Positions 3,349 to 44,611 are shown, numbered from the stretch's first letter. The stretch: 64,000 nt of DNA from Escherichia coli (GCF_048403405.1 NZ_CP183135.1); one strand, 5' to 3'. Program-made: numbers and translations. The notes: generated by a model not told the origin, from the sequence alone.

Positions 3349-3585
3349 ACACCGGCATTGACATGCCGGGGAAGCCCTTATAGTACAATAATTCTCTATA
3401 TCCAAACTGACCCCGATGAGAAAAGCATGGAGACGTTGAGCACCAATCTGCAACTCGCCCGGCTGGTTGGCGTTCAGGGGACGCCGGCAACCATCATTGG
3501 CGACGAGATGATCCCCGGCGCGGTATCGTGGGAGACCCTTGAGGCGGTGGTGAAAGAAAAACTGGCGGTGGCCCATGCTCAGTAA
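3349..3585 (+). pseudogene. DsbA-family thiol:disulfide oxidoreductase, 3' fragment (ScsC-like), cut by the IS26 remnant
   Basis: C-terminal DsbA-like motif ...LQLARLVGVQGTPATIIGDEMIPGAVSWETLEAVVKEKL; in-frame stop directly after the IS26 boundary, no N-terminal half. Confidence 0.5.
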
Positions 3586-4081
3586 ACTGCGCCGCTGGCT
3601 GCGTGAAGGCGCGATCTTACTGGTTGTGCTGGCTGGCGTGATAATCCTGCTGGATGTCTGGCGTTCTCCGCAGATGCCGGCCATGTTTGACAGCACGCCG
3701 CTGCATACGCTGGACGGGGAAACCGTAACGCTGGCGTCGATCAGTGAAGAACGCCCGGTGCTGCTCTACTTCTGGGCGAGCTGGTGCGGTATCTGCCGTT
3801 TCACCACGCCGGATGTCGCCCGTTTGCAGTCGGAAGGGGAGAGCGTCATGACCATCGCGCTGCGTTCCGGTAATGACGGGGAGGTTTCCCGCTGGTTATC
3901 GCGTAAAAGGGTGACGTTCCCCGTCGTGAATGATAGCGGCGGTGAGATATCACGAAACTGGGAAATCAGCGTCACGCCAACGCTGGTGGTGGTGTCGAAG
4001 GGGCAGGTGGTAACTACGACCAGCGGCTGGACCAGCTACTGGGGCATGAAGTTACGTCTGTGGCGGGCAGCCATGTTTTGA
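3575..4081 (+). CDS. membrane-anchored thioredoxin-like protein (ScsD-like)
   Basis: N-terminal hydrophobic anchor followed by WCGIC (CxxC) thioredoxin motif; 168 aa. Confidence 0.6.
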   Translation: MLSKLRRWLREGAILLVVLAGVIILLDVWRSPQMPAMFDSTPLHTLDGETVTLASISEERPVLLYFWASWCGICRFTTPDVARLQSEGESVMTIALRSGNDGEVSRWLSRKRVTFPVVNDSGGEISRNWEISVTPTLVVVSKGQVVTTTSGWTSYWGMKLRLWRAAMF

Positions 4082-4317
4082 TAGCGTGCCGGGGAAACCC
4101 GGCATTTTTTAACCCATTGTAAGGATGTGTAAAACGAGCGGAGAGCGTGTTTTCTGTTATTTTTGCTGCTTTTTTACCGACGCCAGTTATTATTTTTTAC
4201 CGCTGCCTGATGTTGCAAACCTGAATTGATAATGGCATATCTGTTTTAATTGAATGAAAGTCTGTGATACGTTCAGGCGATTTTTTCGATTTCCATTTTG
4301 ACAGGGATAACAATTCA

Positions 4318-5079
4318 ATGCGCAAGGGTAAAATTATTGTTGCATCAATGATGGTGCTTTGTGTCCTTATTTTTGTTGCGGCGGCGGCATGGTTTATGCT
4401 GTTCCAGGGAGAAATGACGGAGCCGACAGAGGAGGAAAAACAGGCGGCAATTTTACACGCTGCGGGCCTGATGAAATCAGAGACCCAGGATAAAAAATCA
4501 GTCGAAACGCTCTATCATCGTTATATTATTCAACGCCATGTTAATTTAGATTCCGGCGAACTGGTGGCTGGCAGCAGCGCGGACACCGCGCGGCAGAAGT
4601 GTGAAAAACTTGCCCCTGAACGCGACCCAGCGCAGGTTCGTCAGCGCTGTACGGTGGCGGATGTGTTCTTTGTGAAAGATAAAAATAATGAAATTCAGCA
4701 GGTTATCATTCCAGTTACCGGTAAGGGTGCGAAATCCATGATGCATGCGTTTCTTGCTCTGGGGCTGGACGGTCGTACGGTGAGAAATCTGTATTATTAT
4801 CAGCAACGGGAAACGCCGTTTCTGGGGGCTAGGGTGGAAGACGCCAACTGGCGCAAACAGTGGCCAGGGAAACGATTATTAGATAACAGCGGACATCCTG
4901 CATTGAAAATAGTACAGGATAAACCTGAACATGCCGATGAATATACCGTTGACGGTATTTCCGGTGCGACGTTGACATCAACCGGCGTTGAGAAAAGTAT
5001 TAACTACTGGATGGGGCCGCAGGGATATGGTCAATTCTTACAGCGTCTTGCCAGCGATCGAAATAACCTTAATCTTTGA
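4318..5079 (+). CDS. FMN-binding-domain protein (NqrC/RnfG-like), membrane-anchored
   Basis: DGISGATLTS motif typical of covalent-FMN domains; N-terminal TM segment; start placed at in-frame ATG 4318 (MRKGKIIV...). Confidence 0.5.
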   Translation: MRKGKIIVASMMVLCVLIFVAAAAWFMLFQGEMTEPTEEEKQAAILHAAGLMKSETQDKKSVETLYHRYIIQRHVNLDSGELVAGSSADTARQKCEKLAPERDPAQVRQRCTVADVFFVKDKNNEIQQVIIPVTGKGAKSMMHAFLALGLDGRTVRNLYYYQQRETPFLGARVEDANWRKQWPGKRLLDNSGHPALKIVQDKPEHADEYTVDGISGATLTSTGVEKSINYWMGPQGYGQFLQRLASDRNNLNL

Positions 5080-5365
5080 ATATTGCTGTACGCAATAACG
5101 CGTTTTATTTCTGCCTGCCGATAATGAATAATATCACTGTCGGCAGGGGGATTTATTCCTCTGTTACCGCGCCTGCCTTGCCGTTAATTCCATGAGAAAA
5201 ACAGGGAGATAACGTCCCTTTTATCAACGCATAATGTGTGTGTTCATCACGATTTGATGAAATAAGTTTACATAACTTGTCGTCTGCTGACATTTTTATG
5301 ATCCAGGTCATGTATAACGCGACAAAAAGATATGATAATAATTATCATTTGTATTCTTTGGCGGT

Positions 5366-7312
5366 GTGCACGTGCGTAACTTCCGTAACTCTTTGTTGGT
5401 TACTCTCTTTGGCTTGTTTATAAGCATGAGTGTCTGGGCGTCGACGAATTATGCGCCTTTGATTGAAGATATCGAGCAACGTCTTGATAAAACAGCGGAA
5501 CTTTATCAGCAACAGCATGCCGACGAGGCGCGCCGCACGGTACAAATGGCCTATTTTGAGGTGTTCGAGAACCTGGAAGGGCCGATCCGCATCAACATTT
5601 CCGCGCGCAAAAGTTACGAGATGGAGAGCGCATTCGGCGAGATCCGTCGAATGATTGGCGAGAAAAAACCGCTCGCTGACGTCCAGGCGCGCATTGACTG
5701 GCTGAAAGCCGCACTGCGCGAAGTGGAACCGGTGCTGGATGGCGGACATCGTCTGGTGGCCGAAGAGCAGCACAACGCGCTGTCCAGGGACGACATTGCC
5801 GTTCACTGGCAGGAGAGTTTCAGGACGATCGACGATCTGCTGGCGCAGGCGGTCACTGAATATCAGGCCGGGAATTACAGCGTTGCCAGTCAGCACGTTC
5901 AACAGGCGCACTATCAGGGCTTTAAAAACTCTGAGATGGAGATGTCCCTCAGACAAAACCGTTCTGCAAAAGATGCCGCCTCCATTAACCAACAATTCTC
6001 ATCCCTGATTGCGCTGACCGCGCAACCTGACCATCTCAACGATGTCTCCTATCAGGTCACTACGCTGCTACAGGATATCGAGGATATCTTACCCGGCTTG
6101 CCAACCACCCGTGACGATCAGCAGGTTGCCGCAGCGCAAAGCGCAGACAACATTCCGGCGGCGGACGAGGGAAATAACCGCACCGACTGGGCTGAGGTGA
6201 CGACGGGAATTAACCAGAGCATTCAGGACGCGATAGCGCGCTATCAGGGCGGCGATGCGAAGAATGCGATTCTGGATATCCAGGATACCTACTTCGACCG
6301 CTTCGAAGCCAGCGGCATGGAAAACAAAATCGGCTCTCGCGATTCGGCATTTAAAACCACGCTGGAGGCGTATTTTACCCGCCTGGTCAGTCTGATGAAG
6401 GCCGGTCAGCCGGTTGAGCGCCTGAATGCAGAGGCCAGCGCGCTGACGCAGGATCTGCAAAAAGCCGTGACGATGCTGGGCGAAGGCGAAGAAACCCAGT
6501 GGAGTCTGCTGCTCTATAGTCTGATGATCATCGTGCGCGAGGGGCTGGAAGCGCTGCTGATTGTTGCGGCAATCGTGGCCTACATGGTGAAAAACAACCA
6601 TCAGGATAAGCTGCCGCTTATTCGTCAGTCGGTAATTGTGGCGCTGATCGCCAGCGTCATCACCGCCGCTATCTTCCAGATGCTGTTTACTAACTCCGGC
6701 GCCAGCCGTGAACTGCTGGAAGGCATAACGATGCTGATTGCCGTCGTGATGCTGTTCTTTATGAGTTACTGGCTGCTGTCCAAAGTGGAAGCGCGCCACT
6801 GGAAAGCCTGGCTGGAAGGCAAACTGTCTCATTCCCTGTCGCGAGGCTCCCTGGTCGGACTATGGCTGACCAGCTTCCTGGCGGTGTACCGCGAAGGGGC
6901 GGAAACGGTGCTGTTCTATTACGCTCTGATTGGCGATGCAAACACGGTATCCGGCCATATGGCGATTGGCGCCGGTTTTGTGATTGGCTGCGTGGTGCTG
7001 CTGCTCGCCTGGCTGGTGATGCGTTACTCAGTGGTGCGCCTGCCGCTGAAACCCTTCTTTATGTTTACCGGCAGTTTCATGTATCTGATGGCCTTCGTCT
7101 TTGCGGGCAAAGGCGTTCTGGAACTGGTGGAAGGCAAACTGTTCCAGCCTACGTTGATTAACGGCTTCCCTGAAATCAGCTGGCTGGGGATTTATCCCTA
7201 CGTGGAAACGTTGTTACCGCAGGTCGTATTGCTGCTCGCGGCGCTGGTGGCGCTGTGGGTGATGCGGCGCAAAAGCGCGGTTCCCGGGGAGACGATAAAA
7301 AATAACCCATAA
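5366..7312 (+). CDS. FTR1-family iron permease with large N-terminal periplasmic domain (FetM-like)
   Basis: 648 aa; signal peptide, ~370-aa soluble domain, then multi-TM FTR1-type region (...REGLEALLIVAAIVAYM...). Confidence 0.7.
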   Translation: MHVRNFRNSLLVTLFGLFISMSVWASTNYAPLIEDIEQRLDKTAELYQQQHADEARRTVQMAYFEVFENLEGPIRINISARKSYEMESAFGEIRRMIGEKKPLADVQARIDWLKAALREVEPVLDGGHRLVAEEQHNALSRDDIAVHWQESFRTIDDLLAQAVTEYQAGNYSVASQHVQQAHYQGFKNSEMEMSLRQNRSAKDAASINQQFSSLIALTAQPDHLNDVSYQVTTLLQDIEDILPGLPTTRDDQQVAAAQSADNIPAADEGNNRTDWAEVTTGINQSIQDAIARYQGGDAKNAILDIQDTYFDRFEASGMENKIGSRDSAFKTTLEAYFTRLVSLMKAGQPVERLNAEASALTQDLQKAVTMLGEGEETQWSLLLYSLMIIVREGLEALLIVAAIVAYMVKNNHQDKLPLIRQSVIVALIASVITAAIFQMLFTNSGASRELLEGITMLIAVVMLFFMSYWLLSKVEARHWKAWLEGKLSHSLSRGSLVGLWLTSFLAVYREGAETVLFYYALIGDANTVSGHMAIGAGFVIGCVVLLLAWLVMRYSVVRLPLKPFFMFTGSFMYLMAFVFAGKGVLELVEGKLFQPTLINGFPEISWLGIYPYVETLLPQVVLLLAALVALWVMRRKSAVPGETIKNNP

Positions 7313-7349
7313 TCGTTGTATAGCCGTTGTTTTAGACGAGAGGATACGT

Positions 7350-7880
7350 TTGATGACCATGAAGAAAACCCTGATTGCCAGCGCAGTGATGGCCAGCATT
7401 TTCATTGCGCCAGCCGCGTTTGCTTTTAAAGAGTACCCGGCAGGCGAGCCTGTCACCATGAATGAAATGGAGCTGGCGGCCGTTTACCTGCAACCGATTG
7501 ATATGGAACCGCGCGGCATGGGCTTACCGGCAGCAAAAGCCGATGTTCACCTTGAAGCGGATATCCACGCTGTAGAAGGCAATAAAAACGGCTTTGGCGC
7601 AGGGGAATGGATCCCGTACCTGACCATCAGCTACACCCTGGTCAACAACGACACGGGCGAAAAACAGGAAGGCACCTTCATGCCGATGGTTGCCAGCGAT
7701 GGCCCGCACTATGGCGCGAACATCAAAATGATGGGCGTGGGCAACTATAAAGTGACCTACCACATTGAACCGCCGTCAAAAGCCGGGATGCATCGCCATA
7801 CTGACAGCGAAACAGGCGTAGGCCGCTGGTGGAAACCGTTTGATGTGAGCTACGAGTTTAAATATGTCGGTCTGAACTAA
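7350..7880 (+). CDS. periplasmic P19-type iron-binding protein (FetP-like)
   Basis: 176 aa with signal peptide, immediately downstream of the FTR1 permease as in FetMP/P19 systems. Confidence 0.7.
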   Translation: MMTMKKTLIASAVMASIFIAPAAFAFKEYPAGEPVTMNEMELAAVYLQPIDMEPRGMGLPAAKADVHLEADIHAVEGNKNGFGAGEWIPYLTISYTLVNNDTGEKQEGTFMPMVASDGPHYGANIKMMGVGNYKVTYHIEPPSKAGMHRHTDSETGVGRWWKPFDVSYEFKYVGLN

Positions 7881-7983: not shown

Positions 7984-9363
7984 ATGAGTTACTTTTTCGT
8001 CACGACGCTACAGGTCTTTTTCTGCATTGCGCTTCTTTCCGGTGTTCTCTGGAGTCGAAACGATCCTCCCTCTTTACGTCCGCTGACCTGGACGCTGCTG
8101 ACCGGGCTGATTGCCGGCGTGCTGGCGGGACTGTTTATTCACGGCAGCCAACCGGTACAACTGCTGCTGGTTGGGGCGGAGGTCATGGTATCGCTGCTGT
8201 TTGTCCTCAGTTTCTGGTGGGCTTCAACGCGTATCCGCTATCTGTGGCAGGGGATTCTGATTTTCGGCGCTGCCCGCCATTGGGCGCTGGACCCTAATCT
8301 GGGCGGGCTGACCAGTACGCATGTGCTGAATACTGACCTGCTGTTAAACCTGACGGCCGTCGTTCTCGCTTTTGCGATCCTCTGTCTGGCGGGCGTACTC
8401 TGCGCGATGCTGCTGCGGCGTATTCGCGGCCTGTACTGGCCGTTAACGCTGATTCTGCTGGTGATGATCTGGCTGCCGCTGAGCGGCAACCTGCTGTTGT
8501 TGCTGATGAAATTACAGGTTGTTCCGCTGGGAAAATCACTGCTGAGCTTCGTGGCGAAAGTCACAAATAACACGGCGCTGTATAACTGGGCGGGAGCCGC
8601 GCTGCTGCTGGCCCTGGCGCTGTGCTGGCTTCCGGCGCTGTTGCGGGCTTTTCGACAGACGCGGGAAACCGAAGAACCGATTGCTCACCGTCTGGCGCTG
8701 GCGCAGCGTCGCAACGCTTTGCGGCTGTGGTTGGTCACAATCGGCTGCGCGGTGGTCGTTATCGCAGGCCAACTGTGGTGGGATAAAGTGGCCTCGCAGC
8801 CGCCGCAACTCTCTGAAGCCGTGCCCGTAACGCTGGGGAGCGATGGCATGGTGCGCCTGCCGGTTGAACAGCTTCGTGACGGTAAACTGCATCGTTTCGT
8901 CTGGGTGGCGGACGATGGCAAAGCGGTGCGCTTCTTCGTGATTAACCGCTATCCCGACAAGCTGCGTTTTGGCGTGGTGTTCGACGCCTGCCTGCTGTGC
9001 GGCGATCAGGGTTATGTCATGGAGGGCAATCAGGTTATCTGCGTCGCCTGCGGAGTGCATATTTTTATTCCGTCTATCGGCAAGGCCGGTGGCTGTAACC
9101 CGGTGCCGATTGAAAACTGGCACAATGATGAAAAAGAGCTGGTGATCCCCGGTAAAGAACTGGCGACAGGGGTGAACTACTTCTCGACGGTCATGACTAT
9201 TAAAGTGACCGATCCGGTCGATGGTTCAACGTTGACCAATACCTCAGCCGATTACAAATACAGCTATGGCGGCAAGACCTGGTTCTTCTCGTCAGAGGCT
9301 AACTATGAACGCTTCCGTGAAACGCCGGAGCAGTTTGTTCCTGCCGACATGAGGGAGGAATAA
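7984..9363 (+). CDS. polytopic membrane protein with C-terminal Cys-rich metal-binding domain (FetA/Cj1660-like)
   Basis: 459 aa; N-terminal multi-TM half; C-terminal CLLCGDQGY...CVACGVHIF...GGCNPVP and GGKTWFFSSEANYERF. Confidence 0.55.
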   Translation: MSYFFVTTLQVFFCIALLSGVLWSRNDPPSLRPLTWTLLTGLIAGVLAGLFIHGSQPVQLLLVGAEVMVSLLFVLSFWWASTRIRYLWQGILIFGAARHWALDPNLGGLTSTHVLNTDLLLNLTAVVLAFAILCLAGVLCAMLLRRIRGLYWPLTLILLVMIWLPLSGNLLLLLMKLQVVPLGKSLLSFVAKVTNNTALYNWAGAALLLALALCWLPALLRAFRQTRETEEPIAHRLALAQRRNALRLWLVTIGCAVVVIAGQLWWDKVASQPPQLSEAVPVTLGSDGMVRLPVEQLRDGKLHRFVWVADDGKAVRFFVINRYPDKLRFGVVFDACLLCGDQGYVMEGNQVICVACGVHIFIPSIGKAGGCNPVPIENWHNDEKELVIPGKELATGVNYFSTVMTIKVTDPVDGSTLTNTSADYKYSYGGKTWFFSSEANYERFRETPEQFVPADMREE

Positions 9364-9365
9364 TC

Positions 9366-10649
9366 ATGCTGTGGCGGATGTTACGACAATCCTGGGGGCG
9401 CAATTTACGCCGCAAAGTGCTGGCGATAATCACCGTTTTTCTGGCCTCCAGCCTGATCTCGGCGCTGCTGGCGGTGTCCATTGATATCGGCGACAAAATG
9501 TCCAGAGAGCTGAAGTCTTATGGTGCGAACATTTTGATTGAACCCGCCGGACAGGCTGCGCTGCCCGCGCTGTTTAGTGAGAGCAGTAATCCGCTTTCCG
9601 GTCAGGATTTTCTTGATGAAGCCGAGCTGCCGAACATCAAAGATATCTTCTGGCGAAACAACATTGTCGGGTTTGCGCCGATGCTCGGCGGCGAAGCCAG
9701 CGTGGAGGGAGAACCAGTGCGGATTCTGGGCACTTTCTTCAGTCAGCCAGTGGATATTCCTGATGAAGAGGGATATGAGACGGGGCAGAAAACGGTCAGC
9801 CCATACTGGCAGGTGACCGGCGACTGGCCGCAGGAACCCGCAGGCGCAGAGCCGCAGACCTTAGTCGGGCACGCGCTGGCGCGGCAAATGGGCTGGAAAC
9901 CCGGTGATAAGCTGACATTACGTACCGAAGGCGAAGCAGTGCAGGTCACCGTCAGCGGTATCCTCTCCAGCGGCGGCGATGAAGATAACCAACTGGTGAT
10001 GCCGCTAAGCACGGTACAGCACCTGCTGGGGCTCCCCGGAAAAGTGCAGGCGATTCGCGTCTCGGCGCTGACGGTGCCGGAAAACGAACTGTCCCGCCGC
10101 GCGCGGGAAAACCTGGACGCGCTCAATGCCGAAGAGTACGACCTCTGGTATTGCACGGCCTATGTGTCGTCGATCGCGCATCAGCTGGAAGAGGCGATTT
10201 CCGGTGCGGAAGTGCGCCCGGTATGGCAGGTCGCGGCGTCCGAAGGGGTGGTGATCGATAAAATTCAGTTGCTGATGGCGGTCGTTACCGTCGCGGCGCT
10301 GGTGGCTTCCGCAATGGGGATCGCCTCGCTGATGACCAGCACCATTATGGAACGCGCCAAAGAGATCGGTTTGATGAAAGCGCTGGGTGCGCGACAGTGG
10401 CAAATTATGCTGCTGTTCTACCTGGAAGCGGCGTCCAGCGGGCTGGCTGGCGGTGCGCTGGGATGTATTGCCGGGTGGGGGCTGGCGAAAGCGATTGGCG
10501 TCATGCTCTTCGACGCGCCGCTTAATTTTGCCTGGATTGTGGTGCCGTGCGTACTGGTGATTGCGGTACTGATTGCGTTGATCGGCACCTGGTTCCCGGC
10601 CCGGCGGATTGCCCGGCTGTATCCTGTGGAGGTGCTGTATGGCCGCTAA
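9366..10649 (+). CDS. ABC transporter permease, FtsX-like
   Basis: 427 aa; N-terminal TM, large periplasmic domain, C-terminal TM bundle. Confidence 0.7.
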   Translation: MLWRMLRQSWGRNLRRKVLAIITVFLASSLISALLAVSIDIGDKMSRELKSYGANILIEPAGQAALPALFSESSNPLSGQDFLDEAELPNIKDIFWRNNIVGFAPMLGGEASVEGEPVRILGTFFSQPVDIPDEEGYETGQKTVSPYWQVTGDWPQEPAGAEPQTLVGHALARQMGWKPGDKLTLRTEGEAVQVTVSGILSSGGDEDNQLVMPLSTVQHLLGLPGKVQAIRVSALTVPENELSRRARENLDALNAEEYDLWYCTAYVSSIAHQLEEAISGAEVRPVWQVAASEGVVIDKIQLLMAVVTVAALVASAMGIASLMTSTIMERAKEIGLMKALGARQWQIMLLFYLEAASSGLAGGALGCIAGWGLAKAIGVMLFDAPLNFAWIVVPCVLVIAVLIALIGTWFPARRIARLYPVEVLYGR

Positions 10650-11769
10650 ACGTACCATGCTCTGGCTGCTGGTGTGGCGGGCGCTGCGTCTGCGTTTTCA
10701 GCGGGTCAGCGTGGTGTTTGCCGCGCTGATGGTGGGGGCGACCATCGTGACGGCGCTTTCTGCCGTCTGGTTCGACATTAACACCAAAATGAGCGAAGAA
10801 CTGCGCACCTTCGGCGCGAATTTTTACATCGGGCCGGGGCACGGTTCCAGTATGCCGCAGCAGGAGTTGCAGAGCATTCTCGATCAGGCGCCGCAGGGGC
10901 TGGTGCATGGCGCCAGTCCGTGGTTGTACGGCATGGCGCGTACCGAGCTGGAAAAAGTGGTGATGGTTGGCGTGTGGTTCGAGTCGCTGCAAAAACTGGT
11001 GCCGTACTGGCAGGTCACCGGTAGCTGGATTGGCGTTAGTTTTGACGACCGTAATGCGATGATCGGCGTCAAACTGGCGGAACGCCTCAACGTGCAGCCG
11101 GGCGACAGCATCACGCTGGTGGATCACAATCAGCGTAAGAATTTGCAGATTAAAGGCATTGTGGAGTCTGGCGATGCGACGGACAACATGCTGATCGTCA
11201 GCCTCGACGTGGCGCAGGCCTGGCTGCATCAGCCGGGCAAAATCAGCCACGGCTTGCTGAGCGTCAGTAACGATGTCGGCCAGGTGGAGAACTATGCCAG
11301 CCGGTTGCAGGCGCAGTATCCTGACCTGGAGATTCGTCCGGTGCGTAAGGTCTCTGCTTCCGAAGGGCAGGTGCTGGATAAAATTAAAGGTCTGATGGGA
11401 CTGGTCTCGATCGTGATTCTGGCGCTCTCTTCGCTGTGCGTGAATACCACGCTGATGGCGATTGTCGGCGAGCGGGCGCGCGAGTTTGCGCTGCAAAAAG
11501 CGCTTGGTTCCAGCAACGGCGATATCGTGCGGCAAATTCTGCTGGAAACCAGCATCATCGCGCTGGCGGCGGTGGCGTGCGGCTGGGTGCTGGGATATTT
11601 GCTGGCGCAACTGTTGGGATTAACGGTGTTTAATGCCGCCATTTCACTGCGTCTGCCGGTGTTGCCCATTACTCTGGTGTTGTCTTTACTGGTCGCCATT
11701 CTGGCGGCGATTGTTCCGGTGCGACGCGCGGTAAGCGTCGAGCCTGCTAAAGTGCTGAAAGGAGAGTAG
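10639..11769 (+). CDS. ABC transporter permease, FtsX-like (second copy)
   Basis: Paralogous architecture to the preceding gene; start placed at ATG 10639 (MAAKRTML...) overlapping the upstream stop. Confidence 0.7.
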   Translation: MAAKRTMLWLLVWRALRLRFQRVSVVFAALMVGATIVTALSAVWFDINTKMSEELRTFGANFYIGPGHGSSMPQQELQSILDQAPQGLVHGASPWLYGMARTELEKVVMVGVWFESLQKLVPYWQVTGSWIGVSFDDRNAMIGVKLAERLNVQPGDSITLVDHNQRKNLQIKGIVESGDATDNMLIVSLDVAQAWLHQPGKISHGLLSVSNDVGQVENYASRLQAQYPDLEIRPVRKVSASEGQVLDKIKGLMGLVSIVILALSSLCVNTTLMAIVGERAREFALQKALGSSNGDIVRQILLETSIIALAAVACGWVLGYLLAQLLGLTVFNAAISLRLPVLPITLVLSLLVAILAAIVPVRRAVSVEPAKVLKGE

Positions 11770-11773
11770 CGCC

Positions 11774-12469
11774 ATGTCCGTTACGCATATCCCTCAGGTG
11801 GCGATCGAAACCCGCCACTTATACAAACGGTTCGGTGACGTTACCGCCCTGGATGACATTAATCTGCGCATTGCGCAGGGTGAATTTGTCGCCATTATGG
11901 GCGCTTCTGGTTCTGGTAAAACCACGCTGATGAATATTCTGACGTGCCTTGATACGGCGACGGAAGGGCAGGTGTTTCTTGATGGCACCGATGCCGCCGC
12001 GCTGGATGAAGAGGGGCGCCGTCGCTTTCGCGCCGAGAAAATCGGCCTGGTATTTCAGCAGTTCCATTTGATCCCGTTCTTAACTGCGCTGGAAAACATC
12101 ATGCTCGCCCAGCATTACCACAGCGTGGTGGATGAAGCGGCGGCGAGGAAGGTGCTGGAACAGGTAGGGCTTGGGCATCGTGTGACGCACCTGCCGAGCC
12201 AGCTTTCCGGTGGTGAGCAGCAGCGTGTGTGTATCGCCCGGGCGCTGGTCAACGAACCGCCGGTTATTTTCGCGGATGAACCGACGGGCAACCTGGATGA
12301 AGAGAATGAGCAGCGGGTGCTGGATCTGCTCACCGATCTGCATCGTCAGGGGCGCACGATTGTGATGGTGACGCACAACCCTGCGCTTGGGCAGTTTGCC
12401 GACCGTATTCTGCGGCTGCAACACGGTAAATATCTGGGTGAGGAGGCCAATCAACATGCGCTGGCATAA
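11774..12469 (+). CDS. ABC transporter ATP-binding protein
   Basis: Walker [10 protein letters not shown], signature LSGGEQQR, Walker [12 protein letters not shown]. Confidence 0.85.
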
Positions 12470-37965: not shown

Positions 37966-38880
37966 ATGCTCTCAATAAAAAAAGTAACCATGCTCTTGGG
38001 GTGCCTAGTCCTCACCTGCTCGATAGCATTTCAGGCGAGTGCAGCTGAAAAATTCAAGGTCATTACAACTTTTACCATCATCGCAGATATGGCCAAAAAC
38101 GTGGCTGGAGATGCTGCAGAAGTCTCATCCATAACCAAGCCTGGTGCAGAAATTCATGAGTATCAGCCTACCCCTGGCGATATTAAACGTGCGCAGGGGG
38201 CACAACTGATTCTCGCCAATGGTATGAATCTGGAATTGTGGTTCCAACGCTTTTACCAGCATCTCAATGGGGTTCCAGAAGTAATTGTCTCTTCGGGTGT
38301 GACGCCAGTAGGGATCACCGAAGGGCCCTATGAGGGCAAACCTAACCCCCATGCCTGGATGTCGCCAGATAATGCTCTGATTTACGTCGATAATATTCGT
38401 GATGCGTTTATAAAATACGATCCGATAAATGCACAAACCTACCAACGTAATGCCGATACTTATAAAGCCAAGATTACCCAAACCCTTGCCCCCCTGCGTA
38501 AGCAGATTGCGGAACTCCCTGAGAATCAGCGATGGATGGTCACCAGTGAAGGGGCTTTTTCTTATCTCGCACGCGATTTGGGGCTAAAAGAGCTTTATCT
38601 GTGGCCGATTAATGCCGATCAACAAGGAACACCGCAGCAGGTACGTAAGGTTGTTGATATAGTTAAGAAAAATCATATCCCGGCAGTCTTTAGCGAGAGT
38701 ACGATTTCCGATAAACCAGCGCGTCAGGTTGCGCGTGAAACCGGCGCGCACTACGGTGGTGTGCTCTATGTCGATTCCCTGAGCACAGAAAACGGCCCGG
38801 TACCTACGTATATCGACCTTCTGAAGGTTACTACCAGTACGCTGGTACAGGGAATTAAAGCCGGAAAAAGGGAGAAATAA
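37966..38880 (+). CDS. sitA: Mn/Fe ABC transporter periplasmic binding protein SitA
   Basis: 304 aa, signal peptide, first of four co-oriented overlapping ABC genes. Confidence 0.85.
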
Positions 38881-39707
38881 TGATGCAATCTGCAGGCATT
38901 GTCGTTAATGATGTTACTGTCACCTGGCGTAACGGGCACACAGCACTGCGCGATGCATCCTTCACAGTACCAGGCGGATCTATTGCCGCTCTGGTTGGGG
39001 TAAACGGTTCCGGAAAATCGACGTTGTTTAAAGCGATTATGGGATTTGTGCGTCTGACCAGCGGGAAGATATCTGTTCTGGGTATTCCCACACGACAGGC
39101 GCTACAGAAAAACCTGGTTGCCTACGTCCCTCAGTCAGAAGAGGTTGACTGGTCATTTCCTGTACTGGTGGAAGATGTGGTGATGATGGGCCGCTATGGG
39201 CATATGGGTATGTTGCGTATCGCCAAAAAGAGGGATCGTCAGATTGTCACCGATGCGCTGGAACGTGTCGATATGGTGGATTTTCGCCATCGACAAATCG
39301 GCGAGCTTTCCGGTGGACAAAAGAAACGCGTCTTTCTGGCGAGAGCGATTGCACAGCAGGGTGATGTGATCCTGCTGGATGAACCTTTTACCGGCGTTGA
39401 TGTGAAAACCGAAGCGAAAATCATCAGCCTGTTGAGGGAGTTACGCGCGGAAGGCAAAACGATGCTTGTCTCAACGCACAATCTCGGATCCGTCACGACA
39501 TTTTGCGATTATACGGTCATGGTCAAAGGCACCGTCCTGGCAAGCGGGCCGACAGACACCACTTTTACAGCCGAGAACCTGGAGCTGGCTTTTAGCGGCG
39601 TACTGCGCCATGTCACACTTAACGGCTCGGAAGAAAGCATTATTACTGACGATGAACGCCCTTTTGTGGCACATCGACCGTCAGCGGTGCAGAGGGAAGA
39701 AAGATGA
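38880..39707 (+). CDS. sitB: Mn/Fe ABC transporter ATPase SitB
   Basis: Walker [10 protein letters not shown], signature LSGGQKKR, Walker B ILLDEP. Confidence 0.85.
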
Positions 39708-40561
39708 ACGTGCTACTGGAACCCTTCAGCTATGAATATATGCTCAATGCGATGTGGGTCTCGGCGATGGTCGGCGGTCTCTGCGCTTTCCTGTCATGCT
39801 ATCTGATGCTAAAAGGCTGGTCGCTGATTGGCGATGCGCTGTCGCACTCTATTGTCCCGGGTGTTGCGGGGGCATATATGCTGGGGCTTCCGTTTTCTCT
39901 GGGAGCCTTCTTTTCCGGCGGACTGGCAGCGGGCAGCATGCTGTTTCTTAACCAACTCACTCGCTTAAAAGAAGATGCCATCATCGGCCTGATCTTCTCG
40001 TCCTTTTTTGGCCTGGGGCTGTTTATGGTGTCATTGAACCCGACATCCGTGAACATTCAGACCATCGTCCTGGGCAATATTCTGGCAATCGATCCGGCGG
40101 ATATCCTGCAACTCACTATCATTGGCATTCTCTCGATCATCGTGCTTTTTTTCAAATGGAAAGATCTTATGGTGACCTTTTTCGACGAGAATCACGCCCG
40201 TGCTATTGGATTGCATCCGGGCAGATTAAAAATCCTCTTCTTCACCCTGCTGTCGGTTTCGACCGTTGCGGCGCTGCAAACGGTTGGTGCCTTTCTGGTG
40301 ATCTGTCTGGTGGTGACTCCCGGTGCAACAGCATGGTTGTTAACCGATCGTTTTCCCCGCCTGCTCATGATTGCTGTAACTATTGGCAGTGTGACCAGTT
40401 TCCTCGGCGCGTGGGTCAGTTACTTTCTGGACGGCGCGACAGGTGGAATCATCGTGGTGGCGCAGACACTGCTGTTTCTTTTAGCATTTGTCTTTGCGCC
40501 CACCCATGGGCTTTTGGCAAATCGTCGGCGTGCGCATAAAGCGCTGGAGGATCGCTCATGA
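39704..40561 (+). CDS. sitC: Mn/Fe ABC transporter permease SitC
   Basis: 285-aa multi-TM permease. Confidence 0.85.
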
Positions 40562-41415
40562 TGGCATTATTACTGGAGCCACTGCAGTTCACCTTTATGA
40601 GTCACGCACTGCTGATTTCACTGGTAGTTTCCATACCCTGTGCGCTGCTGTCGGTCTTTCTGGTCCTGAAAAGTTGGGCACTGATGGGTGACGCGATGAG
40701 TCATGCGGTTTTTCCTGGCATCGTGCTTGCCTGGATTCTGGGGTTACCTCTGGCTACAGGGGCATTCGTCGCCGGAGTATTCTGTGCGGTGGCGACGGGA
40801 TACCTGAAAGACAACAGCCGAATCAAGCAAGATACAGTGATGGGGATTGTTTTTTCTGGCATGTTTGCCGCAGGTCTGATCTTGTATATTGCAGTCAAAC
40901 CAGACGTACATCTTGATCATATTCTTTTCGGCGACATGCTCGGGATAACCATCGGCGATATAATCCAGACGGTGATTATTGCCGGACTGGTTACACTTGT
41001 TATTAGCGTAAAATGGCGGGATTTTTTGCTGTTCAGCTTTGATTATCAACAGGCGCAGGCAAGCGGTTTGCATACGAGATGGCTGCATTATGGGCTGCTG
41101 TGCATGGTCTCCCTGACCATTGTGGCGACGCTGAAAGCGGTTGGTATCATTCTCTCTATTTCTCTTCTCATTGCGCCTGGTGCCATTGCGGTACTCCTGA
41201 CACAACGCTTTCATATTGCGCTCCTGCTGGCGACTGGCATATCGATATTGGTCTCAATGACTGGTGTCTGGCTGTCCTTTTTTATCGACAGCGCGCCAGC
41301 TCCGACAATTGTTGTCTTATTCGCGGTCATGTTCATCATGACGTTTACCGTTACCAGCATCAACGCACGCACAAAGGAAAATGCCGAACCACGGGATTTG
41401 TTATCATCCGATTAG
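40558..41415 (+). CDS. sitD: Mn/Fe ABC transporter permease SitD
   Basis: 285-aa multi-TM permease paralogous to SitC. Confidence 0.85.
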   Translation: MMALLLEPLQFTFMSHALLISLVVSIPCALLSVFLVLKSWALMGDAMSHAVFPGIVLAWILGLPLATGAFVAGVFCAVATGYLKDNSRIKQDTVMGIVFSGMFAAGLILYIAVKPDVHLDHILFGDMLGITIGDIIQTVIIAGLVTLVISVKWRDFLLFSFDYQQAQASGLHTRWLHYGLLCMVSLTIVATLKAVGIILSISLLIAPGAIAVLLTQRFHIALLLATGISILVSMTGVWLSFFIDSAPAPTIVVLFAVMFIMTFTVTSINARTKENAEPRDLLSSD

Positions 41416-41882
41416 CAGAACACTCGGCCAGCAACATCCGCTTATTGGCGATGCGCTTGAACGAATAATGCACAGACTTATGATTCTGATAAGTTTTGTT
41501 GCCAGAGAGTTGCTGCGGACTGGATAGCAAGTAATGTCGATTCTCAGGGGTAGCAAACAGCGCAGTAAAATGAGGGAAGTAGTGGCAAAACATAGAGAAA
41601 ATTGGGGGGCGAGGGCCAGTGATGTAAAAAACCACGCTAAGAGTTTAATTAATTGTTTGTATTGAAGTTTAATGATCTTAACTCACCCTTAAGAATATCT
41701 TCCGGTAACGAAGACGTATAATGCCCCAGCATATTTATATGGCTATGTATCAGCAGCGATAATCTTGCCGGATGCTACTCCTCAGGAGTTTCTCCCGATT
41801 TGCGAAGATGTGACAACGCCTCCTGCATGTAAAGTGTGTTTCACAGCACAACCGCATTGGTCACCAGCCCCAGAGCACCTAG

Positions 41883-42317
41883 TTGATCTTCCTGCCCTTA
41901 ACGGTAGCTGAAGATGACTGGGCTGGATGGAAAATCCTGCATGGTGCATTGGGAGAGCAGATAGAATTGGTTGGCGACGATCTGTTTGTGACCAACGTAA
42001 AGTATATTCAGCGCGGCATTGACGAAAACCTTGCCAATTCAGCATTGATTAAACTCAACCAGATTGGTTCCCTGAGTGAAACCTTTGATGCGGTACAACT
42101 TTGCCATGACAACAACTGGGGCACCTTTATCTCACACCGCAGTGGTGAGACAGTGGACAGCTTTATCGCCGATATGACAGTTGCAATGCGCGCAGGTCAT
42201 CTCAAAACGGGAGCTCCATGCCGGGGTGAGCGTATTGAAAAATATAACCAGCTTATGAGAATTGAGGATGAACTGGGTTCATCGGCGCAATTTGCCGGAA
42301 AGTCTGCCTTTAAATGA
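41883..42317 (+). pseudogene. eno: enolase C-terminal fragment
   Basis: ...[29 protein letters not shown]...[29 protein letters not shown]...[13 protein letters not shown] is the C-terminal third of enolase. Confidence 0.7.
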
Positions 42318-42657
42318 CATTATTGTGCCAATCCCCCAGGCTTACACGTCGGGGTTATTCTGGAGGAATGATGAAAGCTCACGTTTTTGTTATTTCTATG
42401 CTTACTGGCATTGTCGTCACCTATGCCGTGTTACTTCTTGGTTGCTTGTTCATCGATAAAACGCTCCCCACTGTAGATGTTGTCATTCTGTCACTTGTCG
42501 TGGGGGCTTCTGCTCAGCAATTGTCGAGGGTATTAATGTCAATAAATAGAACCTTCCCTTATCTTGCATGTAGTCAAAGGATATAAATTAACAATATCAG
42601 TCAAATGAGAACATATTCTGATATTGTTACGATAAAAAATTATTTTATGAGGGGTAC

Positions 42658-43038
42658 ATGATTAAATCACTTTTTGCCGTCATTATCGGCGGTTCTGTTG
42701 GATGTACTCTGCGCTGGTTACTGTCCACACGCTTTAACAGTCTTTTTCCAAATCTACCTCCAGGTACACTGGTGGTGAACCTCCTTGCCGGGTTAATTAT
42801 TGGTACTGCGTTGGCGTACTTTTTACGACAACCACACCTTGATCCTTTTTGGAAATTAATGATAACAACGGGACTTTGTGGAGGTCTGAGTACTTTCTCT
42901 ACATTTTCTGTTGAAGTATTCGCATTACTCCAGGCGGGAAATTATATATGGGCTTTGACGTCTGTACTTGTTCACGTCATTGGCTCCCTCATCATGACAG
43001 CTTTAGGCTTTTTTATCATAACCATACTTTTCGCATGA
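42658..43038 (+). CDS. crcB: fluoride ion channel CrcB
   Basis: 126 aa, four TM segments, MIKSLFAVIIGGSVGCTLRW...GGLSTFSTFS. Confidence 0.85.
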   Translation: MIKSLFAVIIGGSVGCTLRWLLSTRFNSLFPNLPPGTLVVNLLAGLIIGTALAYFLRQPHLDPFWKLMITTGLCGGLSTFSTFSVEVFALLQAGNYIWALTSVLVHVIGSLIMTALGFFIITILFA

Positions 43039-43100
43039 GAATTCATTAACGTTACAGGTTTATCAACTAATGTGACGCTTAGGATAGAATTTCGCTCCAT

Positions 43101-43161
43101 GGTATGCGTTTGCAGTCATTACAGTCTCCATGACGACTGTAATGACTGCAAACGCATTACC
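43101..43161. repeat. long near-perfect hairpin (26-bp arms, 8-nt loop) downstream of crcB
   Basis: GGTATGCGTTTGCAGTCATTACAGTC / tccatgac / GACTGTAATGACTGCAAACGCATTACC. Confidence 0.5.
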
Positions 43162-43417
43162 TGACATATCAGTATAAACAATGAATTAACCTCTTGGCGT
43201 ATTTTTTACATCACTGGCCCTCACCCCCCAAAATTCTCTCTGAAAAATTGTTGCGGTTAACGTTGCCAATGTATCCACCCATTTCAGAAGACGATCTGGC
43301 ATCCTGGTGGCATGCTGCGATGTGCTTCAGGTGAGTGCACTGGGCGGTCAGCACAGGCGGTTTCGACAGCGAAATTGCACAGGACGTTATGCCGGCTGTG
43401 AGTACAACATCATAGCC

Positions 43418-44611
43418 TTACTTGATTGTACGGTAATGCCAAATACATGCAGACACTATGGTAAATAATACAGCGGCAAATAATGCCGTCACAATCAGCG
43501 CGATTGAGACACCTGTTTTCGACGCCAGTGGCACCAACAATGCGCACAGCCCATAGCCAAGTGTGTGACTGGCCGCAAGCCAGCCCGCGCCTGCGCCGTC
43601 GGCCAGCTTATCATTCAGTAAAAGTTGATAAGCGGGTGTTGCCAGAGCGGCCCCAAATGACAGCACTGCACAGCCCAGGTAAAACAACCATAGCTGTTCA
43701 GTGAGCATGATAGCCAGACCACTACTCATCAACACCCCGGCACTCAGGAGCAGAGCCACTGGAGTCAGGCGCTGTGGACGGAGTACCACGAACTGCGCGA
43801 TAAGCGCAGCTATTGCGGACAGCCCCAACAACCACGCCACCTGTTGGCTAATAGTGGTGGTATCAGTATCGAACTGGCGAGTAAGGGCTGGCGAAAGTCC
43901 AAGCTGCATCATGCTCATTGCCGCAGCCAGTAACATTGCGCAAAGCAGATAAGGCAGGCAATCCCGCTTCAGGCTGACGCTCTTGCGCTCCGGTGTGGGC
44001 TGTGGTGGTGTGCCGGGCAACCGCAGAAGCATCACCACAGCCCACACCGGAGCTGCCATCAGCATCCACACTGGCGCCAGAGGGTGAATGACCAACATTG
44101 CCGCCGCGCACAGCGGCCCGAATAGCCTGCCGCAGCTCAGGCCGGAGCTGATGGTTGCCAGAGCGGCCATGCGATTCCCTTCTCCCGCTCTCTGCAATGC
44201 CCAGACCTGACAGGCTGGCACCATTGCTGACACGGTCAGACCGTAGACGATCCGGGCGATGATTAATATTCCCAACCCCACCGCTGTTGTTACGGCACCG
44301 GTAGCCATCAGCACGCTTCCCAGCCCAAGCAGGGTAAAGCTTACGCCATATCCTCCCAGAGCCCACAGCACCACAGTCTTACTGCCAGTAAGGGAAATTT
44401 GCTTTCCCCACCATGGGGAAGATGGCAGAAACAGCATTGAGCCCAGCATCAGCAGGGCAGCCCATACAGACAGACTCAGATTTGTCTGTATGACCAGAAC
44501 AGGGAGTACAACCAGCAGACCGTTCTGTCCGATACCGAGAAGACCGGCACTGAACGCCAGTGGCCAGCAGGACAGGGTTTTTTGGGGCGTATCTTCGATC
44601 TTAGATGACAT
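43418..44611 (-). CDS. shiF: MFS transporter ShiF (aerobactin-locus associated)
   Basis: 397-aa 12-TM protein divergent from and immediately upstream of iucA. Confidence 0.7.
   Translation of the reverse strand: MSSKIEDTPQKTLSCWPLAFSAGLLGIGQNGLLVVLPVLVIQTNLSLSVWAALLMLGSMLFLPSSPWWGKQISLTGSKTVVLWALGGYGVSFTLLGLGSVLMATGAVTTAVGLGILIIARIVYGLTVSAMVPACQVWALQRAGEGNRMAALATISSGLSCGRLFGPLCAAAMLVIHPLAPVWMLMAAPVWAVVMLLRLPGTPPQPTPERKSVSLKRDCLPYLLCAMLLAAAMSMMQLGLSPALTRQFDTDTTTISQQVAWLLGLSAIAALIAQFVVLRPQRLTPVALLLSAGVLMSSGLAIMLTEQLWLFYLGCAVLSFGAALATPAYQLLLNDKLADGAGAGWLAASHTLGYGLCALLVPLASKTGVSIALIVTALFAAVLFTIVSACIWHYRTIK

Follow-up and report, generated by a model that had tools for sequence, protein, structure and literature searches.

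Results

A unit bounded by inverted repeats lies between sitD and shiF

The DNA analysed here is a stretch of 64,000 nucleotides from a ColV-type virulence plasmid of Escherichia coli (GCF_048403405.1, NZ_CP183135.1; hereafter the window), and the subject of this work is a unit of 1.6 kb within it that lies between sitD and shiF and is bracketed by two imperfect inverted repeats (IRs). Profile matches and a repeat search recovered inside this unit the content that a first-pass annotation of the window had listed, namely the 3' end of an enolase gene (eno), a small open reading frame (ORF) with two predicted transmembrane (TM) segments, the fluoride channel gene crcB and a long hairpin. A stub of a transposase gene (tnpA) overlaps the left repeat and reaches to the eno fragment. 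The coordinates of all features are collected in Table 1.

Table 1. Features of the unit between sitD and shiF and of its immediate flanks (window coordinates; rc, reverse complement; aa, amino acids).
Feature	Position	Strand	Evidence or remark
Left flanking direct repeat AAAATT, candidate target-site duplication	41598-41603	.	read from sequence; same hexamer directly outside IR-R
IR-L (left terminal inverted repeat), 38 bp	41604-41641	+	GGGGGGCGAGGGCCAGTGATGTAAAAAACCACGCTAAG; tnpA stop codon inside (41637-41639, minus strand)
tnpA pseudogene stub, last ~89 codons, three in-frame stops	41637-41908	-	tblastn, DNA identity, label of the Prokaryotic Genome Annotation Pipeline (PGAP)
Deletion junction, tnpA 3' stub joined to last third of eno	41907-41908	.	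2-nt microhomology; 4,241 bp of long form gone
3' fragment of eno, encoding the last ~135 aa of an enolase of 413-426 aa	41909-42317	+	non-functional remnant
Small hydrophobic two-TM ORF, 72 aa from ATGATG after GGAGG	42368-42586	+	putative gene
crcB, intact, 126-aa fluoride channel (Fluc)	42658-43038	+	NF010792, TIGR00494
Perfect hairpin, 23-bp stem, 8-nt loop	43104-43157	.	between crcB and IR-R; 100% complementary
Right-arm subterminal extension	43169-43192	-	copy of last tnpA codons, as beside IR-L
IR-R (right terminal inverted repeat), 37 bp	43193-43229	-	rc GGGGGGTGAGGGCCAGTGATGTAAAAAATACGCCAAG; 1-nt deletion and 3 mismatches relative to IR-L
Right flanking direct repeat AAAATT	43230-43235	.	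read from sequence

The repeats are the termini of a Tn3-family element

An inverted-repeat search of the window returned the pair 41591-41631 and 43202-43242 (41 nt, 90% complementary). The first-pass annotation had described the repeats as ~70 bp long and ~85% identical, and global alignment of 41595-41665 with the reverse complement of 43169-43240, the coordinates it had used, bore this out (62/73 positions, 84.9%). The arms are therefore real, but their extent had been drawn too wide: the outermost 9-13 nt are flanking target DNA, the element proper runs from 41604 to 43229 (1,626 bp), and over these true ends (41604-41665 versus the reverse complement of 43169-43229) identity rises to 54/62 positions (87.1%). 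In every relative compared, similarity starts exactly at GGGG and the DNA beyond is unrelated, so that the resemblance outside GGGG belongs to the target and not to the repeat; it consists of AAAATT, a nearly self-complementary hexamer, with CATAGAG next to it on the left side and CTCTCTG on the right side. The left 38-nt arm occurs a single time in the window at up to 3 mismatches (shuffle expectation 0.00, 100 shuffles), the right arm being missed by this search solely owing to its own 1-nt deletion.

Both arms start with a G-run and end in ACGCTAAG and ACGCCAAG, respectively, and thus conform to Tn3-family terminal inverted repeats of the type GGGG...ACGCTAAG. Terminal repeats of ~38 bp with the GGGG start and the ...ACGNTAAG end are present in the window and were aligned with the termini of intact family members: IR-L differs at 3/38 positions from the IR-L of an intact transposon described below, and it resembles the IR of Tn1000. 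A scan of 100,044 species genomes with the IR found 14 loci, all of them ends of related Tn3-family elements, which helped to define the termini; none of these 14 loci carried a fluoride operon.

The tnpA stub points to the same family. Residues 904-980 of an intact 992-aa TnpA encoded on plasmid pEk140_mcr-10 (L001) align by tblastn to 41906-41676 with 91% identity across three stops, and the stub DNA is 91-92% identical to the ends of intact tnpA genes. When 41400-43450 was compared by megablast with PLSDB, where the hosts of the matches include Enterobacter, Citrobacter and Klebsiella, the segment 41600-41908 matched about 200 plasmids at 91-93% identity, at the IR and 3' end of an intact gene labelled 'Tn3 family transposase'. 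In RefSeq the stub is already annotated as a pseudogene (PGAP label 'Tn3 family transposase; internal stop; missing N-terminus'), and the eno fragment is marked there as partial. The L001 transposase, which is 99% identical to the TnpA of the intact fluoride element, matches NF033527 at 1122.7 bits; of such a large DDE transposase (~1000 aa; NF033527/PF01526) the window keeps only the stub, and an ORF listing and tblastn showed the cointegrate-resolution module (res plus resolvase) to be absent from the window unit. Because it has neither transposase nor resolvase, the remnant cannot move on its own; the window unit is a relic, not a functional member of the Tn3 family.

Beyond the IRs, ~25 subterminal bases are also common to both arms, and the repeat measures ~62 bp rather than 38 because the right end copies the last tnpA codons as well. 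The same end-to-end similarity of 55-65 bp is found in the intact transposon, whereas in Tn1000 and in a relative from Silvania hatchlandensis the two ends diverge after 35-38 bp and lack the subterminal extension. The cargo-side end would thus be a second copy of the tnpA-side end, last tnpA codons included, which suggests that the fluoride operon was originally captured by recruitment of an extra tnpA-proximal end in this transposon lineage.

An intact relative carries a riboswitch-controlled fluoride operon

The PpaC protein of a second lineage (Enterobacter hormaechei pEB3_IMP1, L003), looked up in public assemblies, led to an intact relative of 7,601 bp (for example L032:5964-13564) in other Enterobacterales, with 86-92% identity. 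It contains IR-L, tnpA, tnpR, a fluoride riboswitch (45.3 bits), ppaC, usp, eno, a 59-aa ORF, crcB and IR-R, and encodes a TnpA of 1002 aa (PF01526) and, divergently from it, a TnpR of 187 aa (PF00239). The window aligns to coordinates 1-305 (91%) and 6257-7601 (87%) of this element. No copy with both ends was present in PLSDB or among the complete E. coli genomes, and the sole PLSDB copy of the lineage (pEB3_IMP1) is cut by IS26.

The intact element was found at nine distinct right junctions, in contexts that comprise F-type transfer regions, the neighbourhood of IncFII-type repA genes and one apparently chromosomal location with feo and mal neighbours, and five of its sites have perfect 5-bp duplications (TTTGT, TAATA, AACTA, TTAAA and GTAAC). 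The related element in S. hatchlandensis is likewise flanked by a 5-bp duplication, TAATA. On the basis of the nine junctions and the 5-bp duplications, the parent is a bona fide, recently active Tn3-family transposon. Together with the Tn3-family IRs and the tnpA stub, its presence at many sites confirms the suggestion of the first-pass annotation that the crcB unit derives from a mobile element. Three intact copies (L030, L031 and L034) have no matching 5-bp flanks, and one neighbouring region is common to L034 and L036 on opposite sides of the element, an arrangement that suggests inversions or recombination between copies.

Among known transposons, Tn1000 (gamma-delta), carried by the F plasmid, is the most similar. 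Its TnpA and that of the intact relative share 82% identity over 1,001 aa, the IRs resemble each other (GGGGTTTGAGGGCCAATGG... in Tn1000, GGGGTTTGAGGGCCAGTGATG... in the IR-R of the intact relative), and both elements have divergent tnpA and tnpR genes around an intergenic region of ~160 bp, a tnpA gene that ends inside the IR and 5-bp target duplications. By contrast, the resolvase of the intact relative is only 48% identical, its cargo is a riboswitch-controlled fluoride operon, its ends share ~62 bp instead of ~35 bp, and the window copy is without tnpA, tnpR and res.

A transposase 99% identical to that of the intact fluoride element also accompanies other cargo, in L001 (pEk140_mcr-10; 9005-12016) and in ~200 other plasmids, many of them from Enterobacter, Citrobacter and Klebsiella. 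The same transposase with different cargo implies module exchange, probably at res. Another relative, L038, has a hybrid left end.

A longer form at the same site differs from the window by one deletion

At the same sitD-shiF site, 16 PLSDB plasmids, including Klebsiella pneumoniae p52977-166.3 (L002), carry a longer form in the order sitD, IR-L, tnpA pseudogene, tnpR C-terminal fragment, riboswitch, ppaC, usp, eno, small ORF, crcB, IR-R, shiF. Its tnpA pseudogene corresponds to aa 420-992 with several stops, the resolvase fragment is the C-terminal part of a serine-type enzyme, and the fluoride riboswitch (RF01734) scores 43.8 bits (gathering score 34); ppaC encodes a Mn-dependent pyrophosphatase, usp a universal stress protein and eno a full-length enolase. 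This long form aligns to coordinates 1-1755 (92%) and 3463-7601 (86%) of the intact element. By BLASTN the window is identical (100%) to the long form on either side of a single 4,241-bp deletion, 41300-41908 corresponding to L002 1153-1761 and 41907-43007 to L002 6001-7101. We refer to the window version as the short form.

Further damage is seen in related plasmids: ISKpn26 lies at the 3' end of crcB in L002 (window equivalent ~43003-43007), IS1 and IS3 have inserted in crcB or close to it, the match of one variant ends at about 42620, and another variant is truncated at about 42038, where it abuts an annotated 'malate dehydrogenase'. In some strains (L022 and L023), sit, the long-form transposon, shiF and the iuc module stand together beside chromosomal-looking genes (BLUF-EAL, MlrA-like, YmgL).

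The ColV copy is fixed at one site

The same sitD flank was present in 967/967 PLSDB records with a left-junction match of at least 99%, and the same right junction in 770/780. The deletion junction of the short form was found in 945 of the 5,426 complete E. coli genomes; the median count per genome was one place, and 15 of the places were chromosomal. The whole 2,051-bp stretch used as query was matched by 737 plasmids, nearly all of those among the matches listed as a single collinear piece and none of those listed in the inverted configuration. Thus, independent insertions at different sites are true of the intact parent and not of the ColV lineage, whose near-identical copies all occupy one locus instead of several loci each with its own duplication, as would be expected of a TIME or mobile insertion cassette. 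The ColV copy shows no sign of moving.

The uninterrupted target was reconstructed as sitD-CATAGAGAAAATTCTCTCTG-shiF, and a 600-nt sitD-shiF joint was used as query for an empty site. It had no contiguous match in 72,556 PLSDB plasmids or in the 5,426 complete E. coli genomes, and metagenome contigs, scanned for an exact 20-mer, yielded three matches, none homologous to either flank. The DNA just outside the element (41591-41603 and 43230-43242) is near-palindromic (CATAGAG-AAAATT-CTCTCTG); that this palindrome served as a terminator of shiF was considered and rejected, the reconstructed site folding at -6.7 kcal/mol (z = -1.55).

These counts bear on two other explanations, both raised by the first-pass annotation, which had viewed the crcB unit as a possible mobile cassette and its repeats as a possible inversion or recombination site. 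If the 1.6-kb unit were a still-active non-autonomous element, a related transposase acting in trans would move crcB. The two recognisable Tn3-family IRs in correct inverted orientation and the loss of the unit's own transposase fit such an element, and closely related intact transposases, whose IRs differ at few positions, are common in Enterobacterales plasmids. It nevertheless appears very unlikely to us, since the left and right junctions and the one place per genome are those of a stationary sequence, IR-R has a 1-nt deletion within the repeat, and the unit demonstrably arose by deletion from a longer copy at this site; a currently mobile cassette is not supported. An invertible segment with the repeats as the crossover sites of a site-specific inversion switch has the geometry in its favour, inverted repeats bracketing genes, and nothing else. 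No intact recombinase lies in or beside the unit, the arms are the termini of a transposon and have counterparts at the ends of intact ones, and the plasmid matches are collinear as given above, so that we consider an inversion switch next to impossible. By the PLSDB junction counts the ColV lineage has one arrangement and no insertion polymorphism, the very pattern that the first-pass annotation had foreseen for the case that its proposal did not hold.

crcB is left without its riboswitch, downstream of sitABCD

The eno fragment matches TIGR01060 at 196.9 bits, below the 300-bit cut-off, and agrees without a difference with the 3' end of the complete eno gene in L002. Coverage is limited to positions 289-422 of the 425-position profile, so that the fragment cannot be an enolase. 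No Pfam or NCBIfam family matches the small ORF. The counterpart of this ORF in the intact transposon is 59 aa long and has a different C-terminus through a 1-nt indel, and over 57 codons the two differ by 9 synonymous and 8 non-synonymous changes, a ratio without clear constraint; the ORF is weakly constrained. CrcB, on the other hand, scores 175.8 bits against NF010792 (cut-off 125) over its full length of 126 aa and 108.4 bits against TIGR00494 (cut-off 80.45), and its gene differs from the crcB of the intact transposon at 15 synonymous and 3 non-synonymous codons. As judged from these comparisons, crcB alone among the remaining genes of the unit is clearly intact, and fluoride export by CrcB is the only plausible surviving function.

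An Rfam scan of 41000-44000 gave no match to the fluoride riboswitch RF01734 even at E≤1. At the same threshold it returned, for the hairpin and neighbouring sequence, only eukaryotic miRNA, snoRNA and lncRNA matches, which were rejected as implausible. Promoter and terminator counts within the unit were not above those of shuffled sequence, and no internal promoter is claimed; nor did the prediction scan find a terminator-like site between sitD and crcB. sitABCD, the eno fragment, the small ORF and crcB are all on the plus strand, with sitB to crcB spanning 38880-43038. In plasmid pS88, quantitative reverse-transcription PCR (qRT-PCR) in urine in vivo gave inductions of 776-fold for sitA, 140 for sitD, 18.7 for the truncated eno, 9.7 for the ORF and 6.1 for crcB (PMC3438092, Table 1), values that drop monotonically along the strand from sitA to crcB. 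Read-through from sitABCD is probably the source of the 'enolase' induction reported in urine, and we infer that such read-through, starting at the sit promoter, now drives crcB expression.

The hairpin between crcB and IR-R folds at -44.5 kcal/mol (z = -10.9) and is not followed by a U-run. At the same place the intact transposon has an imperfect hairpin (-24 kcal/mol, z = -4.1; L032:13420-13510) that shares the outer and inner parts of the stem and differs from the window in the central 10 nt of the left arm and in 21 extra nt upstream; only in the ColV lineage is the hairpin perfect. It looks like a quasi-palindrome that was made perfect by a template-switch 'correction'. Further repeats lie inside the minus-strand gene shiF (43987-44053 and 43638-44168), where a 24-nt inverted repeat (96% complementary, arms 19 nt apart) and two short direct-repeat families were noted.

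Discussion

Taken together, the evidence makes it highly probable that the unit between sitD and shiF is a decayed gamma-delta-like fluoride-resistance transposon, fixed at its site, with a crcB gene that is read through from sit. The repeats would be the two terminal IRs of a Tn1000-like Tn3-family unit transposon whose cargo was a fluoride-riboswitch-controlled operon of ppaC, usp, eno, the small ORF and crcB. One copy would have entered the ColV-type sit-aerobactin module between sitD and shiF, which are convergent; this single insertion is deduced from the identical AAAATT on both sides. A first deletion would then have taken the 5' part of tnpA, res and the 5' part of tnpR, leaving the long form, and a second (4,241 bp, at a 2-nt microhomology) would have taken the remaining tnpA and tnpR sequences, the riboswitch, ppaC, usp and two thirds of eno, leaving the form seen in the window. 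Having lost riboswitch and promoter, crcB would most likely be transcribed by read-through from the upstream, co-oriented and Fe/Mn-regulated sitABCD operon.

Several points weigh against this account. The AAAATT repeat is 6 bp long and intact relatives make 5-bp duplications; an empty site that would confirm a simple insertion was not found in PLSDB, the complete E. coli genomes or the metagenome contigs; and the intact element is matched more closely by the left part (92%) than by the right (86%), so that one of the two lineages may be recombinant. With regard to function, E. coli also has a chromosomal crcB, expression of the CrcB protein from the relic and fluoride tolerance are predictions, and the whole basis of the read-through model is one published qRT-PCR table together with the absence of predicted terminators.

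The three points on the insertion are also those that favour an origin of the arms from two separate transposon copies, one beside sit and one beside shiF-iuc, with recombination, either homologous or at res, having joined the modules. Such a history would agree with sit and iuc being apart in most E. coli chromosomes, where the left-flank matches end inside sitD, and with the occurrence of hybrid ends in relatives such as L038. Against it stand the identical AAAATT directly outside both ends, for which we estimate a chance of roughly 1e-3 to 1e-4 even in AT-rich DNA, the next 7 nt that are near-palindromic across the reconstructed site, and the GGGGGG start, which is common to both arms and was seen in no relative, and which for this reason favours a single element. 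The 6-bp repeat could reflect an atypical 6-bp stagger or a 5-bp duplication with a 1-nt slip in the A-run; that it came about when two copies of different origin were joined by recombination is less likely, and a two-copy origin as a whole seems to us improbable. We therefore retain the insertion of a single transposon followed by two deletions.

The cargo has a known counterpart in the FRM operon of Enterobacter cloacae, which is fluoride-induced and riboswitch-controlled, confers high fluoride resistance as shown experimentally, and has RF01734 ahead of ppaC, with uspA, eno and crcB coming next (PMC5533749). The FRM operon differs in having six genes, gpmA among them, and in lying on a genomic island flanked by unrelated transposases (PMC5533749), whereas the operon described here lacks gpmA, places the small ORF ahead of crcB and forms the cargo of a Tn3-family unit transposon; the window itself keeps only the eno 3' end, the ORF and crcB and has lost the riboswitch. 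With TIMEs or mobile insertion cassettes, non-autonomous elements derived from Tn3 (reportedly described by Szuplewska et al. in 2014), the window unit shares a pair of Tn3-family IRs that enclose no transposase. TIMEs are short and multicopy, with their own duplications at many sites; the unit here is 1.6 kb long, confined to a single site and produced in situ by deletion. Cargo capture of the Tn1721/Tn1722 type involves an extra end that carries a 3' fragment of tnpA, and the cargo-side end here similarly duplicates the tnpA-proximal IR and the adjacent tnpA 3' codons, with the differences that only ~25 bp of tnpA are duplicated and that there is no third, internal IR. Thus, both the type of element (Tn3 family, gamma-delta-like) and the type of cargo are already known, the unit is an ordinary transposon relic, and the known mechanism of such elements is unchanged by the finding.

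In the literature searched, we found no description of the fluoride transposon, no link between these pieces and no recognition of the ColV eno and crcB genes as transposon debris. Papers on ColV plasmids count eno and crcB as "core" genes and have offered speculative roles for them, for the truncated enolase that of a metabolic helper induced in urine (PMC3438092) and for crcB one in plasmid condensation (PMC4723317). The present results give these "core" genes a concrete origin as leftovers of a fluoride-resistance transposon. They also provide a clean example of stepwise decay, from the intact element through the long form to the short form, inside a clinically important plasmid backbone, and an intact Tn3-family transposon with riboswitch-regulated, non-antibiotic cargo that is worth naming and depositing.

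A further-reaching proposal, which we offer only tentatively and regard as doubtful, is that the parent is an undescribed, currently active gamma-delta-like transposon that spreads fluoride resistance and that, in addition, the relic crcB is kept (in ~17% of complete E. coli genomes) by sit-driven fluoride tolerance. If this were true, a crcB gene that the deletions had rewired to the Fe/Mn-responsive sit promoter would give extraintestinal and avian pathogenic E. coli (ExPEC/APEC) a selectable fluoride tolerance in urine or in the poultry gut, and the parent transposon would be spreading riboswitch-controlled fluoride resistance among the plasmids and chromosomes of Enterobacterales.

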